A DNA stretch of 64,000 bases from an uncultured Acidimicrobiales bacterium (GTDB taxonomy: Bacteria; Actinomycetota; Acidimicrobiia; Acidimicrobiales; DATKAS01). Within the stretch, counting starts at the first letter, position 1, and each line of letters opens with the position of its first letter. Below the pieces are notes generated by a model. It had not been told where the DNA came from and made no database searches. It saw nothing but the letters and a program-made list of their open reading frames with translations. Position numbers and translations under genes: made by a program. This document shows, one piece after another, positions 17,148 through 56,151 of this stretch. The stretch covers positions 42,151 through 106,150 of the forward strand of contig CAVZAF010000010.1 in assembly GCA_963773315.1 (NCBI GenBank), read 5' to 3'.

Positions 17148-17194
17148 CGAGGCCCGTCACCTCCCCGGGGGGACGAGAGAGGTGACGGGCCTCG
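17148..17194 (-). terminator. Perfect 16-bp inverted repeat, probable intrinsic terminator or RNA-stabilising hairpin
   Basis: cgaggcccgtcacctc-N15-gaggtgacgggcctcg downstream of the FAD reductase gene; no U-tract. Confidence 0.65.
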
Positions 17195-17241
17195 ACCAGG
17201 TGAGGTCACGCCGCGCGACCGGCGTGGCTCGGTTGTTGGGC

Positions 17242-52406: not shown

Positions 52407-53118
52407 TCTCACCGACCCATCGGCCTTCCACGAGCGCTTCGTCGCGTCCGCCGAGGCGGCAGTCACGCCTCGGCGGGCCGAGCTCCACCGGCTCGCCGAC
52501 GCGCTGCGCGTCGCGATCGAGTGCCTGATGGACACCCAGGCCCCCGAGGAAGCGCTCGCCGACGCGGCCGCGCAGGCCGAGGCGCTCGCAATCTTGTTGC
52601 AGTCGCAACCTCGTGGCCGCACGGTCGAGGGCTGGGCCGAGGTCGCGAACGCCGGCGACACCTTCGGGTTCTTCGACTTCTCGCCGGTCTTCGGTCGCGC
52701 GAACCCGCTCGCCCCTCCTGTGCGCATGGGGGTCGCCGAGGACGAGGTGCGCGGCACCGTGCGGTGGGGCGCCGCGTACGAAGGGCCTCCTGGATGCGTC
52801 CACGGCGGCCACATCGCAGCGGCGTTCGACGAGGTGCTCGGCATGACGCAGTCGCTTTCCGGCGCGCCGGGGATGACCGGCATCCTGACCATCAAGTACC
52901 GCAGCCCCACGCCGCTGCACACCGACCTCGATTTCGCGGCGCGAGTCAGCCGGGTCGACGGGCGCAAGATCTACACCGAGGGCACGTTGAGGAACGGTGA
53001 CCTCGTGTGCGCGGAGGGCGAGGCGCTGTTCATCTCGGTCGATTTCGCGAAGTTCGAGGCGATGCGCGCGCAGGTGAACCGTGACACAGCAGATCCCGAC
53101 ACGGCGACCGGCGGCTAG
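52399..53118 (+). CDS. PaaI family thioesterase
   Basis: YEGPPGCVHGG, FDEVLG, MTGILTIKYRSPTP. Confidence 0.9.
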   Translation: MADLTDPSAFHERFVASAEAAVTPRRAELHRLADALRVAIECLMDTQAPEEALADAAAQAEALAILLQSQPRGRTVEGWAEVANAGDTFGFFDFSPVFGRANPLAPPVRMGVAEDEVRGTVRWGAAYEGPPGCVHGGHIAAAFDEVLGMTQSLSGAPGMTGILTIKYRSPTPLHTDLDFAARVSRVDGRKIYTEGTLRNGDLVCAEGEALFISVDFAKFEAMRAQVNRDTADPDTATGG

Positions 53119-55115
53119 GTGAACGCCGACACGAGGTCGAGCACCTCGTCTCCGTAGCGTTCGAGCTTCACCGGCCCGATGCCCGGAACCGCGCGGAGGG
53201 CGGTCTTCGTGCGAGGGCGGTTCTCGACGATCGCGGCGAGCGTCTTGTCGTCGAAGATCGTGTACGCGGGAGTGTCGGCCGCGCGTGCACGTGTCAGCCG
53301 CCACTCCTTGAGCGCCTTGAAGAGCGGGTCGCTCCCTTCGGTCGGGGCGCGCCGAGCGGCTTCGAGCGTGCGCTTGGCGTTGCGCACCGACGCTCGGTTG
53401 TCACCCTCGGGCAAGCCCGCGCGCAGCTCCTCGCACGTGTCCTCGATCGGCGCCAGCAACGGCGATGGGGAGCGGTTCATCGAGCGCGTGCCGAACGTGC
53501 GTTGCTCGGCCCACATCAAGTGCAGCTCGCGTTCGGCGCGTGTGAGTGCGACGTAGAGCAGGCGCGCCTCTTCTTCGAGCGCCTCGGGCGTCGTCGCCTG
53601 GCCGATAGGCACGAGACCACGCTCGAGGCCGGTCACGATGACGACGGGCCACTCGAGCCCTTTCGCTCGGTGGAACGTGACGAGGTCGACCGCATCGGTG
53701 TCGGCGGCGATGTCATCCGTGCGCATCGTCGCGGCGAGCCAGTCCGCGAAGCCGGTCGTGGTGCCGGCGGGGTCGAGGGCGAGGTACTCGTGACCGAGCC
53801 GCACGAGAGCCTCGAGGTTGCGCCGACGCTCGTCGGTGAGGCCTGTTCCGTCGTCGCCATCGCCGTCGACGTCGTCCGCCTCGCCCACGATTGCCTCGAG
53901 GTCGGCGAGCCGCGGAGCGAGAGGGATCGTGCCGCGGTGGCGGGGGTCGCGCAGCCACGCCCGGACCTCGGGCTGTTCGAGGAGCCTGCCGCCACCACGG
54001 ACCCGGCACGGCACGTTCGCCGCCCGCAGCGCTTCTTCGAGCAGCGCGAGCTGCGCGTTGGTGCGCGCGAGCACGGCGAGGTGGCGCCATCCCATCGTGG
54101 GCCCGCGCCGGTCACGCACGCGCCGCGCTGCGGCGGCGGCCTCGACCACGTCGGTCGGGTAGGACGAGATCGACGGCACGGGCCCGTCGGCCTGAGTCGT
54201 GTGGCGGCCGCGAACGTCGAGGACGCTCGATGCGACACGAACGATCTGCGGGCTCGATCGATAGTTCGTCTCGAGCCGCACGATCGTCGAGCCGGGGTAG
54301 CGCTCGGGAAACTCGGCCAGCACCGCCGACTCGGCTCCGTTCCAGCCGTAGATCGCCTGGTCGGGGTCGCCCACGACGCACAGATCGGGACGGCCCGCGC
54401 GCCACGCCTCGAGCAGGTAGAGCTGTAGAGGGTTGATGTCCTGGAACTCGTCGACGTACAGGTGGCGGAACTTCCAGTGCTGGACCGCGGCGAAGTCGCG
54501 GTCGTCGCGGACCGCGCGAGCACACTGGATGAGCACGTCGTCGAAGTCGATGAGCGCGCGCTTCCGTTCGACGCGCTCGTAGCGCTCGTAGATGGAGGCG
54601 ACGACCGTCGCCGGCAGCGGCGGCCGGCGGCCCACCTCGTCGCACGCGCCCGTGTACGCGGCGGGGTTGATCATCCGTGCCTTGGCCCACTCGATCTCGG
54701 CCGCGATGTCGGCGGGCTGCACGAGCTGGCTGGTGCCGCCCCGCTTGCTGGCTTGGCTGACGAGCGGGGCGAGGATGCCGGCCTTGCGGTCGAGCAGCGA
54801 CGGCGGCGCGACGCCGGCGTCGGCCCATCGCTGCCGGAGCTGTGCGAGCGCGACGGCATGGAAGGTGCCGGCGTGGGCATGGCCCCGCAGGCCGAGCGCG
54901 CCGAGCCGGGCGCCGAGCTCGCTCGCTGCCTTGCGTGTGAACGTGATGACGAGGACGTGGCCGGGATCGGCGGACCCCGTGGAGAGCCGGTGCGCGACGC
55001 GGCGCGTGAGCACTCGGGTCTTGCCGGCGCCGGGCCCGGCGATGATGCAGAGAGGCGCGCCCGCGCTCGTGACCGCGGCGCGCTGCGCGTCGTCGAGGTC
55101 GGCCAGCAGGTCCAT
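53115..55115 (-). CDS. uvrD2: ATP-dependent DNA helicase UvrD2 (with HRDC domain)
   Basis: AGPGAGKT, VDEFQD, VGDPDQAIY, NYRS, TFHRAKGLEW, YVALTRA, HRDC LKEWR...PAYTIF. Confidence 0.92.
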   Translation of the reverse strand: MDLLADLDDAQRAAVTSAGAPLCIIAGPGAGKTRVLTRRVAHRLSTGSADPGHVLVITFTRKAASELGARLGALGLRGHAHAGTFHAVALAQLRQRWADAGVAPPSLLDRKAGILAPLVSQASKRGGTSQLVQPADIAAEIEWAKARMINPAAYTGACDEVGRRPPLPATVVASIYERYERVERKRALIDFDDVLIQCARAVRDDRDFAAVQHWKFRHLYVDEFQDINPLQLYLLEAWRAGRPDLCVVGDPDQAIYGWNGAESAVLAEFPERYPGSTIVRLETNYRSSPQIVRVASSVLDVRGRHTTQADGPVPSISSYPTDVVEAAAAARRVRDRRGPTMGWRHLAVLARTNAQLALLEEALRAANVPCRVRGGGRLLEQPEVRAWLRDPRHRGTIPLAPRLADLEAIVGEADDVDGDGDDGTGLTDERRRNLEALVRLGHEYLALDPAGTTTGFADWLAATMRTDDIAADTDAVDLVTFHRAKGLEWPVVIVTGLERGLVPIGQATTPEALEEEARLLYVALTRAERELHLMWAEQRTFGTRSMNRSPSPLLAPIEDTCEELRAGLPEGDNRASVRNAKRTLEAARRAPTEGSDPLFKALKEWRLTRARAADTPAYTIFDDKTLAAIVENRPRTKTALRAVPGIGPVKLERYGDEVLDLVSAFT

Positions 55116-55164
55116 CGAGGTCACCTTAGGGAGGGGGTGGGGCACTGCCGGTGACCGCCCATAG

Positions 55165-55187
55165 CTATCCCCAGGGCCTGTGGAGAA
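55165..55187. promoter_or_regulatory. Inverted pair of DnaA-box-like 9-mers upstream of uvrD2
   Basis: ctatcccca (55165) and tgtggagaa (55179) versus the TTATCCACA/TGTGGATAA consensus. Confidence 0.45.
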
Positions 55188-55224
55188 CGCCGGTGGGGCA
55201 AGCGCTATGGGCGAAAGCCTGGGC

Positions 55225-55589
55225 AAAACGCGGTTCGACCCCGAGTAGCCTTCGGGCCGAAGCCTTCCGCACTCCTCGGGGCCGCACCCCGTTCCACGCC
55301 TCGTCGCTTCCCTCGCACCTTTCGGCACTCCGGCGCTCCGGGCGCCCCCTGGCCTCCGTGCGTGCCCACTTGCGTGGACCCACCCGGCGGTGGACGGCGC
55401 CTTCGACGTGACTCGTCCCGCAGACCCTCCGCACCACCCCGCCCGTTGGCTCCGATCACTGCGTGGCTTTCACCCCACAGCTCCCGGTTCCCCCGAGCCG
55501 GGCGCTCACTGCTGGGCTCAACACCCTGCCGCGTGCTGCTCGCTGCGGGGCTCAACACCCTGCGGCGTGCGGTGCATTGCGCATCCGGT
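55225..55589 (-). ncRNA. Candidate large structured ncRNA or 5' leader (about 360 nt), family unassigned
   Basis: Non-coding, G/A-rich minus strand, many hairpins with GCAA, GAAA and cUUCGg loops, upstream promoter, terminal stem followed by a short U-run. Confidence 0.55.
55504..55571. repeat. Imperfect 34-bp tandem duplication
   Basis: gctc(a/g)ctgc(t/g)gggctcaacaccctgc(c/g)gcgtgc at 55504 and 55538. Confidence 0.88.
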
Positions 55590-55595
55590 GGCGTC

Positions 55596-55624
55596 ACTTT
55601 GCCGATTCGCAACACAACCGTCAA
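55596..55624 (-). promoter_or_regulatory. Putative sigma70-type promoter (TTGACG-17 bp-CAAAGT)
   Basis: -35 at 55624-55619, 17-nt spacer, imperfect -10 at 55601-55596. Confidence 0.5.
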
Positions 55625-55649
55625 GAGAATTTCGGCAACTTTCGACATC

Positions 55650-55724
55650 TCTGGATAACTTGTGGACACTCCTGTGGAGACACTGTGGATGGGGTGTGGG
55701 TGACGGCCGTCACATTGTGGACAG
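55650..55724. promoter_or_regulatory. Cluster of six co-oriented DnaA-box-like 9-mers
   Basis: tctggataa 55650, tgtggacac 55661, tgtggagac 55673, tgtggatgg 55684, tgtgggtga 55695, tgtggacag 55716. Confidence 0.6.
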
Positions 55725-55806
55725 CGCGTCAGCAACGGCCGCGGGGTCGCGCACCGCCGCGCAGGGCTGGTCCGTCGTCACGAGTCACCCTCGGTAGCGT
55801 CCGGGC

Positions 55807-56151
55807 GTGCTCGTCTCGCCGGAGCGTTTCGAAGAGCTCGTGGCCGAGGCGCTCGACGGCATCCCGCCGGAGCTCGGGGCGCGCATGGACAACGTCGCGG
55901 TGTTCGTCGAGGACCGGCCACGCCAATCCGGCCTCTTGGGTCTCTACCAAGGAGTGCCGTTGACCGCGCGCGATGCCGGGTACGCGGGGATGGTGATGCC
56001 CGATCGGATCACCATCTACCGGCTCCCGATCTGCGCGATCTCCGCGACGGAAGGCGACGTCGTGCACCAGGTGCGCGTGACCGTCGTGCACGAGGTCGCA
56101 CACCACTTCGGGATCGACGACAACCGCTTGTCCGAGCTCGGCTGGGCATAA
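55807..56151 (+). CDS. Zincin-like metallopeptidase family protein
   Basis: LLGLYQGVPL, PDRITIYR, VVHEVAHHFG. Confidence 0.9.
   Translation: MLVSPERFEELVAEALDGIPPELGARMDNVAVFVEDRPRQSGLLGLYQGVPLTARDAGYAGMVMPDRITIYRLPICAISATEGDVVHQVRVTVVHEVAHHFGIDDNRLSELGWA

Follow-up and report, generated by a model that had tools for sequence, protein, structure and literature searches.

Among the RNAs described from bacteria, the one with which the element reported here is most readily compared is Ms1, a 6S-like RNA of mycobacteria and Streptomyces that binds the RNA polymerase core. According to the passages cited, Ms1 is ∼304 nucleotides (nt) long and is transcribed from a promoter with -10 and -35 elements up to a rho-independent terminator (PMC4191392), its gene lies near the origin of replication in 84% of cases (PMC4191392), and it is conserved in its neighbours, genes for a HAD-IB hydrolase/phosphoserine phosphatase and for an oxidoreductase, while that for 6C RNA lies one gene away (PMC9130861, PMC6582537). 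Ms1 homologues diverge so fast that sequence searches reach close kin only (PMC4191392, PMC9130861), and Rfam holds a model of the family, as stated in a paper from 2022. Here we analyse a gap in a 64,000-nt stretch of Acidimicrobiales DNA (the window; contig C10 of a genome of 4.36 Mb that is 88.5% complete), and conclude that its minus strand carries, at positions 55225-55589, a stand-alone gene for a conserved, structured, non-coding RNA of ∼365 nt with a strong promoter of the housekeeping type. The RNA family is new to Rfam 15 and has no known relative, stand-alone non-coding RNAs of bacteria being in themselves a familiar kind.

The element shares with Ms1 an actinobacterial host, a length of about 300 nt, -35 and -10 elements of the sigma-A type, a terminator of its own, the organization as a single-gene unit, a probable abundance and the fast divergence of homologues. 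It differs from Ms1 in its neighbours (Zincin_1 and uvrD2), in a position that is not origin-proximal, in a fold that may be multi-branched, in its conserved 3' hairpin, and in the lack of any Rfam match. With the raiA motif, OLE, ROOL and GOLLD, large orphan RNAs that came out of comparative genomics, it has in common that the RNA is long, heavily paired and stand-alone, with GNRA loops, stems of variable length and widespread occurrence in a clade, and raiA also occurs in Acidimicrobiia (PMC10861870). In those RNAs a conserved core runs through the whole molecule, whereas conservation between families is confined here to the 3' hairpin, and the raiA model finds no match. Sequestering RNAs of the CsrB/RsmZ type likewise combine a modular, fast-evolving body, duplicated hairpins and purine-rich, GGA-containing linkers with a conserved terminator hairpin. 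Here, however, the loops are GNRA rather than GGA, and a Csr-type sponge is unlikely since CsrA was not found in this genome.

A conserved and structured RNA gene

The predicted transcript (55225-55589, minus strand) is an array of hairpins with GNRA and UUCG loops, consisting of 44% G and 11% U; its start is placed 7 nt past the -10 element and its end at a UUUU run. The promoter is near-consensus and of the sigma-A type (55596-55624, minus strand), with the -35 hexamer TTGACG at 55624-55619, a 17-nt spacer, and the -10 hexamer CAAAGT at 55601-55596, just where an earlier sequence-only reading of the stretch had put it, and none of the 11 genus sequences deviates in either hexamer. At the other end stands the signature of the family, a terminal hairpin (55227-55293, minus strand) recognized from an inverted repeat and from its conservation, with the core CCCCGAGGAG ... 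GGC-UUCG-GCC ... GGCUACUCGGGG (55283-55239), an outer stem and the tail CGCGUUUU. Its closing stem, ccccgag (55281-55275) with ctcgggg (55245-55239), forms the centre of an inverted repeat of 22 nt (55293-55272 with 55248-55227), and UUUU follows at 55228-55225. The sequence-only reading had pointed to this stem and the U run behind it; both are there, the stem is kept in the comparative consensus, and indeed every sequence feature which that reading had named was found in its place. Near the 5' end, a repeat search revealed a tandem 34-nt duplication (repeat D2; 55504-55571, minus strand; copies 88% identical) that forms two extended hairpin modules. At both places shorter relatives have minimal CGCC-GNRA-GGCG hairpins, and the modules are consequently to be seen as stems of variable length.

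Folding supports the minus strand. Between 55225 and 55600 it reaches -198.1 kcal/mol (z -3.85), a value as low as which none of 100 dinucleotide shuffles came, and the plus strand of the same region gives a z of -1.24, with 12 of 100 shuffles folding as well. In the consensus of 11 genus sequences 98.7% of the cells are paired, and compensatory change was seen in 5 of 102 pairs, compared with 2.0±0.9 in shuffles (1 of 500 as high). For the terminal hairpin, aligned from 34 sequences, 96.9% of the cells pair and both partners have changed in 10 of 16 pairs, as against 2.4±1.0 in shuffles, none of which (0/500) scored as high; a control in which the partner columns were slid left at most two compensatory pairs. 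The apical stem of the hairpin covaries freely (GGC/GCC, GGGG/CCCC, CGAC/GUCG and others), and sequence conservation is seen in two arms (GAGRAG and GCUACUC) and in an internal loop rich in purines, with CGGRA facing GAA. Covariation was also found in a subfamily of 13 members with RNAs of ∼260 nt, where 8 of 50 pairs are compensatory versus 3.7±1.2 in shuffles (0/500 as high), and where one helix has 4 of its 6 pairs compensatory around an invariant GGUUCCCUGGGA hairpin. The same subfamily (L027, L035, L041 and ten others; alignment A6) has two further invariant hairpins, GGUUC-CCUG-GGAUC and GGGUC-GUCC-GACCC, inside covarying helices (columns 118-131 and 157-170); neither was found in the RNA of this window.

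For the RNA body no fold common to all families was found. Minimum free energy and consensus folds of the RNA are multi-branched, and folds of RNAs of this length are predicted unreliably. The hairpins drawn in the sequence-only reading survived in part: the genus consensus keeps gtccac-GCAA-gtgggc, gtgcc-GAAA-ggtgc and ggc-TTCG-gcc in addition to the closing stem, while ggcgc/gcgcc, ggacg/cgtcc and cccgg/ccggg are superseded by alternative pairings of longer range, and gtgg-GGTGAAAG-ccac sits in an expansion segment that only 4 of 11 genus sequences have and is thus lineage-specific. As to the G-U pairs of that reading, many occur in the consensus, and the one-sided G-C/G-U changes agree with the minus strand.

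Of 10 other genomes from the genus, all 10 contain the region (77-97% identity); in its own genome it is single-copy, and the hairpin model has one match there. In the genus alignment (11 sequences, with this genome as the reference G000, which carries the 34-nt duplication) no variation is seen in the promoter, at the 5' end or in the terminal hairpin, and three hairpins differ in length. Beyond the genus, the terminal hairpin is the only part aligned by BLAST and by R1, a covariance model of the 3' domain with 184 positions that was trained on the genus. When the order was sampled evenly with 151 genomes, a second model, R2, with 77 positions and built from the 34 hairpin sequences, detected the hairpin (core CCCCGAGRAG...CUACUCGGGG) in 61 of them at E≤1e-4, including 44 of the 118 that are of high quality, and in 51 of 122 genera; R1 matches 28 of the 151. 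In a sample drawn from the whole phylum, 16 of 151 genomes have an R2 match. Two of these matches (L064, L067) are ordinary terminators, judging from their sequence, and the others include three families from other orders of the same class, with the variant hairpin CCCCGAGAGGG...CCCUCGGGG, as well as one family of another class, in 6 of 10 genomes. The counts for both models include genomes flagged as unpublished (G151 in the order; G301 and G205 in the phylum), and no claim is made on these alone.

An exact-pattern scan of 185,579 species genomes gave at least 119 stretches, and the titles among the matches listed are nearly all Acidimicrobiia, Acidimicrobiales, Microthrixaceae, Iamiaceae, Acidimicrobiaceae or Candidatus Poriferisocius, with some metagenome-assembled genomes titled 'Actinomycetes' or 'Actinomycetota'. 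Fifteen stretches were inspected, six of which are chance matches in coding sequence (L095, L096, L131, L137, L141, L143) and one (L127) doubtful. Other families share the layout of the gene: a TTGAC(C/G)-17-NANNNT promoter stands 210-380 nt ahead of the hairpin, and next comes a body full of hairpins, rich in G and poor in U. Of 120 pattern matches, 90 have TTGAC-N16-18-NANNNT at a distance of 100-560 nt on the upstream side of the hairpin, and the spacer among 83 loci with a predicted RNA below 400 nt is 17 nt in 61, 18 nt in 12 and 16 nt in 10. Between promoter and hairpin the body of 230-380 nt evolves fast and stays G-rich and U-poor, with GNRA-capped hairpins duplicated or lengthened by lineage, and many Acidimicrobiales families and some other Actinomycetota retain the hairpin core (CCCCGAGRAG ... 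apical stem-loop ... GCUACUCGGGG). A genome has only one or two such places, nine genomes of the order sample having two distinct ones. The RNA gene is tandemly duplicated together with its promoter in some relatives (L073, with hairpin matches 518 nt apart; L063/L068 of G287, 412 nt), and at L044 a second, degenerate copy of the hairpin lies immediately downstream.

The substitutions are those of a non-coding sequence. In an overlapping frame of 176 codons the three codon positions have similar shares of variable columns (36/126, 35/126 and 40/125), indels whose length is not a multiple of three occur in 9 of 10 genus relatives, and the overlapping open reading frames contain zero Pfam families. 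At gathering scores the whole window has no match to Rfam 15, tRNA included. A search of 55050-55850 with all 4227 families at E≤10 returned two chance-level matches only, and a search of 20 homologous loci at E≤0.01 only tRNAs and one match overlapping a tRNA. The model of the raiA motif RNA (RF03072; gathering score 101.3 bits) had no match in 55050-55850 at E≤10 or in the own genome at E≤1, and the likeness to raiA that the sequence-only reading noted is accordingly not supported. For Ms1 there was no relevant match in the all-family scan at E≤10 and none in the 20 homologous loci at E≤0.01. The 6S RNA model (RF00013) matched neither the window, nor the own genome at E≤1, nor, at E≤1e-3, a single one among 151 genomes from the order. 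RNase P RNA, tmRNA and signal recognition particle (SRP) RNA are absent from the RNA region (E≤10) and score above their cut-offs elsewhere in the genome (C3:366793, C10:214484, and C4:10174 with C11:414826, respectively). The two SRP RNA matches (C4:10174-10272 and C11:414826-414924) are identical in score and E-value and represent either a duplicated gene or redundant contig ends. 6C RNA was not found in the window at its gathering score; the best 6C-like match of the genome lies at 17149-17206 of the window (C10:59299-59356, minus strand), with 27.4 bits versus a cut-off of 47 and an E-value of 0.27.

The sequence-only reading had proposed an undescribed structured RNA of ∼360 nt on the minus strand, and had suggested a comparison with Rfam and a search for conservation and covariation in relatives. 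The former gave no significant match, and the latter are present, in 10 of 10 genus genomes and as compensatory pairs in the hairpin, the subfamily and the genus, so that its proposal is now backed by conservation, covariation, non-coding substitutions and the lack of an Rfam match. Literature searches, mostly at the level of listings and the beginnings of abstracts, found no description of this RNA; there is a small chance that it has been named in some paper outside the literature searched.

Six RNA-library runs contain part of the stretch, and four were compared with the locus, two of which (X13 and X15) are the same data filed twice. In a small freshwater metatranscriptome (X19) one contig of 378 letters with a word depth of 121 covers 55266-55583 with 7 differences. 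Both of its loose ends read as sequencing adapter, and it consequently represents a complete insert of 318 nt, no part of which falls outside the predicted RNA and one end of which is 6 nt away from where the RNA is predicted to start. Nothing from X19 was placed outside 55266-55583, an absence which is no evidence. The depth of the contig is a hint of abundance, and the RNA is probably abundant. In soil runs (X13/X15 and X17) there are only contigs of low depth (2-5), which extend over RNA, promoter and flanking genes without distinction and are uninformative on the transcript.

The row of DnaA-box-like sites

Clusters of DnaA boxes outside oriC, such as datA of E. coli and the clusters of B. 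subtilis, bind DnaA or are regulated by it. The DnaA-box consensus is TTATCCACA, or TTGTCCACA in actinobacteria. Upstream of the -35 element of the RNA gene, five sites (55650-55724, minus strand), each one or two letters from this consensus, form a row that reads TTATCCAGA, GTGTCCACA, GTCTCCACA, CCATCCACA and CTGTCCACA in the sense of the RNA, with plus-strand starts at 55650, 55661, 55673, 55684 and 55716 and hence spacings of 11, 12, 11 and 32 bp. The row is invariant within the genus. The sequence-only reading had noticed neither these sites nor the restriction of conservation beyond the genus to the 3' hairpin. Its TGTGGA/TCCACA motifs also flank the dnaA gene of the same genome, so that several near-consensus sites here share their motif with the organism's own dnaA region. 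When the genome was searched for the densest 300-bp windows of TCCACA/TGTGGA, the region upstream of dnaA came first (5 sites) and the RNA promoter second (4 sites), the dnaA-dnaN spacer having 3. In 62 upstream regions of 120 nt from relatives there are 96 TGKGGA/TCCMCA motifs versus 10.3±3.2 in dinucleotide shuffles (maximum 19 in 200), although the loci are related and the figure overstates their independence; at least two boxes occur in 30 of the 62. Between the row and the -35 element lie two CGAAA elements (GTCGAAAGTTGCCGAAAT; 55630-55644, minus strand), possibly an UP-like element or a factor site, and a counterpart, CGCGAAA(A/T)-N5-10-CTTGAC, was seen by eye, without statistics, in many relatives.

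DnaA binding to the row is plausible from these sequence features. As in datA and the B. subtilis clusters, a phased row of DnaA-box-like sites stands away from the origin and beside a promoter; here, in contrast, it precedes a non-coding RNA gene, and DnaA binding is a prediction from sequence. We know of no description of a DnaA-box cluster ahead of such a gene, and to our knowledge a phased array of this kind on the promoter of a non-coding RNA is undescribed. A reading of the region as origin or terminus was rejected, since contig C10 has no GC-skew turn, the dnaA gene and the boxes that belong to it lie on a different contig, and distances of 48-49.5% from dnaA were seen in three related genomes only. 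In five complete chromosomes the RNA is 34, 37, 48, 48 and 49.5% of the chromosome away from dnaA, four of the five genomes belonging to one cluster of related RNAs. The three chromosomes behind L069, L100 and L108, which are related, have it at 48-49.5%, roughly opposite the origin, and those behind L086 and L088 at 34% and 37%.

Proposed role and competing readings

According to our preferred explanation, the locus is a stand-alone gene for a structured RNA of ∼365 nt from an uncatalogued family, which acts in trans by binding protein and whose synthesis is tuned through DnaA-type boxes; to this explanation as a whole we would give an even chance. The RNA would act as a stable, abundant, protein-binding molecule. 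Its invariant 3' hairpin with the purine-rich internal loop may end transcription, protect the 3' end and dock a conserved partner, and the fact that it is the only element constrained in sequence across families fits a docking site for a protein that also ends or protects the transcript. The variable multi-hairpin body would be a scaffold or decoy, and its modular, duplicated and fast-evolving make-up is how such a part behaves. DnaA, or a protein with the same site preference, would tune synthesis of the RNA from the helically phased boxes, and such control would couple the RNA level to the status of replication. A bolder proposal, in which the RNA is a new housekeeping class with a promoter wired to DnaA and a 3' hairpin that captures a conserved protein of transcription or DNA repair, is offered tentatively and is on balance doubtful.

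Several observations weigh against this explanation and call for some caution. The -10 hexamer CAAAGT agrees with TATAAT at only 3 of 6 positions, the U run after the terminal hairpin has 4 U rather than 5, most relatives have no U run after the hairpin at all, and a generic scan of 54900-56100 for sigma-70 promoters and intrinsic terminators returned 0 sites. Most consensus pairs are invariant within the genus. The signal of expression is one contig from one run of one study, and contigs give neither strand nor level, nor are RNA libraries necessarily free of DNA. As to the boxes, 30 of the 62 promoters in relatives have none, and those of other families are mostly reversed and of the form TGGGGAY, whereas their dnaA regions mostly have TGTGGAC, which leaves DnaA binding unproven. 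As to a partner protein, recurrent neighbours of the RNA gene are limited to uvrD2, Zincin_1 and an alpha/beta hydrolase, and the failure to find CsrA, mentioned above, belongs here too. Finally, 70 of 160 homologous loci have uvrD2 downstream on the same strand, a linkage that a purely trans-acting RNA does not need.

The main alternative is that the RNA is the functional counterpart of 6S or Ms1 in Acidimicrobiia, an abundant binder of RNA polymerase (holoenzyme or core) that adjusts the capacity for transcription to the state of growth. This is possible, though we consider it unlikely. The similarity to Ms1 in size, sigma-A-type promoter, terminator and single-gene unit (PMC4191392, in the part cited) argues for it, as does the depth of 121 of the freshwater contig, which hints at an abundant RNA; moreover, canonical 6S RNA was found neither in this genome nor in the 151 genomes of the order, and the role is thus unfilled. 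Against it stand the absence of an Rfam match of any kind and a neighbourhood in which the synteny of Ms1 (HAD-IB hydrolase/oxidoreductase, 6C one gene away) was not seen. The distances of 34-49.5% of the chromosome from dnaA in the five complete chromosomes are unlike the origin-proximal position of Ms1, the folds, as far as they can be predicted at this length, are multi-branched instead of a long hairpin with a central bubble, and what is conserved is the 3' hairpin, not such a bubble. Also, 90 of the 151 genomes of the order have neither RNA.

A second alternative places the function in cis, the promoter feeding uvrD2 through a long leader or attenuator with the terminal hairpin as a regulated terminator. 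The sequence-only reading had left the choice between a stand-alone RNA and a uvrD2 leader undecided, and here the gene neighbourhood is informative. The RNA lies in a 691-nt gap between two divergent genes. Downstream is a gene for a uvrD2-like helicase (53115-55115, minus strand; Pfam UvrD-helicase, UvrD_C and HRDC; ATG at 55115-55113), and upstream a Zincin_1 gene (PF06262; 55807-56151, plus strand; Pfam 6e-28). The same reading had called this the only large non-coding gap of the window, which was not borne out: a crude open-reading-frame scan based on the G+C content of third codon positions (GC3) gave 10 other stretches of at least 250 nt without a high-GC3 frame, at least one of which is coding (Peripla_BP_2). 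In relatives, a Zincin_1 gene is divergent upstream in 34 of the 160 oriented loci (which include the six chance matches and the doubtful L127 of the pattern scan), and 29 have both uvrD2 and Zincin_1. The linkage to uvrD2 is real and unexplained, and it favors a leader in that the gene starts 100-235 nt past the hairpin on the same strand in several families and the hairpin is terminator-like.

A leader or riboswitch should, however, always stand on the same strand upstream of the gene that it regulates. When the nearest downstream open reading frames of 16 loci were compared with Pfam, 7 were convergent genes with a family, 5 were unrelated genes on the same strand, and 4 had no family (downstream genes were judged by the GC3 filter and Pfam, since strand calls by the longest open frame are unreliable in high-GC DNA and mis-called 7 uvrD2 loci). 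The convergent genes encode polysaccharide deacetylase (23 nt away), HhH-GPD, cation efflux, nucleotidyl transferase, XdhC, aconitase C and methyltransferase, and the unrelated ones include MsrA, DUF6027, thiolase, CoA ligase and DnaJ; genes upstream are equally varied, save for the recurring alpha/beta hydrolase. Homologues with the same promoter and hairpin before convergent genes imply a gene that stands alone and is not an obligatory leader of uvrD2, and of the two options left by the sequence-only reading the former fits better. In addition, a second copy lies elsewhere in some genomes, there was no sign of an alternative antiterminator fold, and uvrD2 may be served by elements of its own. 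In this genome a genus-conserved box pair, TTCTCCACA and CTGGGGATA (55165-55187, minus strand), stands between the 3' end of the RNA and uvrD2 and probably belongs to the promoter region of uvrD2; its 10-mer CCTGTGGAGA recurs identically in the row upstream of the RNA promoter (repeat D5). In several other families (L015, L017, L034, L045, L050) a promoter-like element, TTGTCACAC-N8-TACGGT, is conserved between hairpin and uvrD2. We take it to resemble the RecA-independent (PafBC-type) DNA-damage promoter of actinobacteria, and if it really is one, uvrD2 has its own promoter. We therefore regard the leader as improbable. Relocated copies of the RNA gene (L035, L036, L039, L043, L044, L047, L057) often adjoin genes of stress response or DNA repair, an anecdotal observation (NUDIX, MsrA, superoxide dismutase, Lon, HhH-GPD glycosylase, DnaJ, LigD primase-polymerase).

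A slim chance is left to a third alternative, in which the DNA itself matters as a cluster of DnaA boxes that titrates or positions DnaA, similar to datA or the Bacillus clusters, the RNA being a by-product or helper. The five boxes with their spacing of 11-12 bp, the rank of the row as the second densest box cluster of the genome after that of dnaA, and the excess of boxes across relatives (96 versus 10.3±3.2) all accord with it. On the other hand, 30 of 62 promoters are boxless and their RNAs still keep hairpin and promoter, compensatory change and a conserved hairpin are unexpected of a by-product, and the missing GC-skew turn and the location of dnaA with its own boxes on another contig show that the region is not oriC. 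Lastly, a protein-coding sequence (e.g. the 176-codon frame at 55735-55205, minus strand) or a mobile repeat is highly improbable: long stop-free frames do exist on both strands, but they are expected of G-rich, U-poor sequence, have no Pfam match, lack codon-position bias in their variable columns and are broken by indels in 9 of 10 relatives, and a mobile repeat would not be confined to one copy in the genome.

In conclusion, the data presented describe a conserved RNA gene in Acidimicrobiia, bacteria whose RNA biology is almost unexplored despite their abundance in soil, freshwater, the sea, sponges and activated sludge. About 40% of the genomes sampled from the order have the RNA, which occurs in other lineages of Actinomycetota as well, its promoter is among the best in its surroundings, and it supplies a testable object in the form of an invariant hairpin of 43 nt, a promoter and defined carrier genomes. 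Since no recognisable 6S or Ms1 is present in the order, this RNA is an obvious candidate to be examined for the missing role. If the bolder proposal is true, an RNA wired to DnaA would provide a link from replication to gene expression in Acidimicrobiia, a clade without a recognisable 6S or Ms1 RNA.

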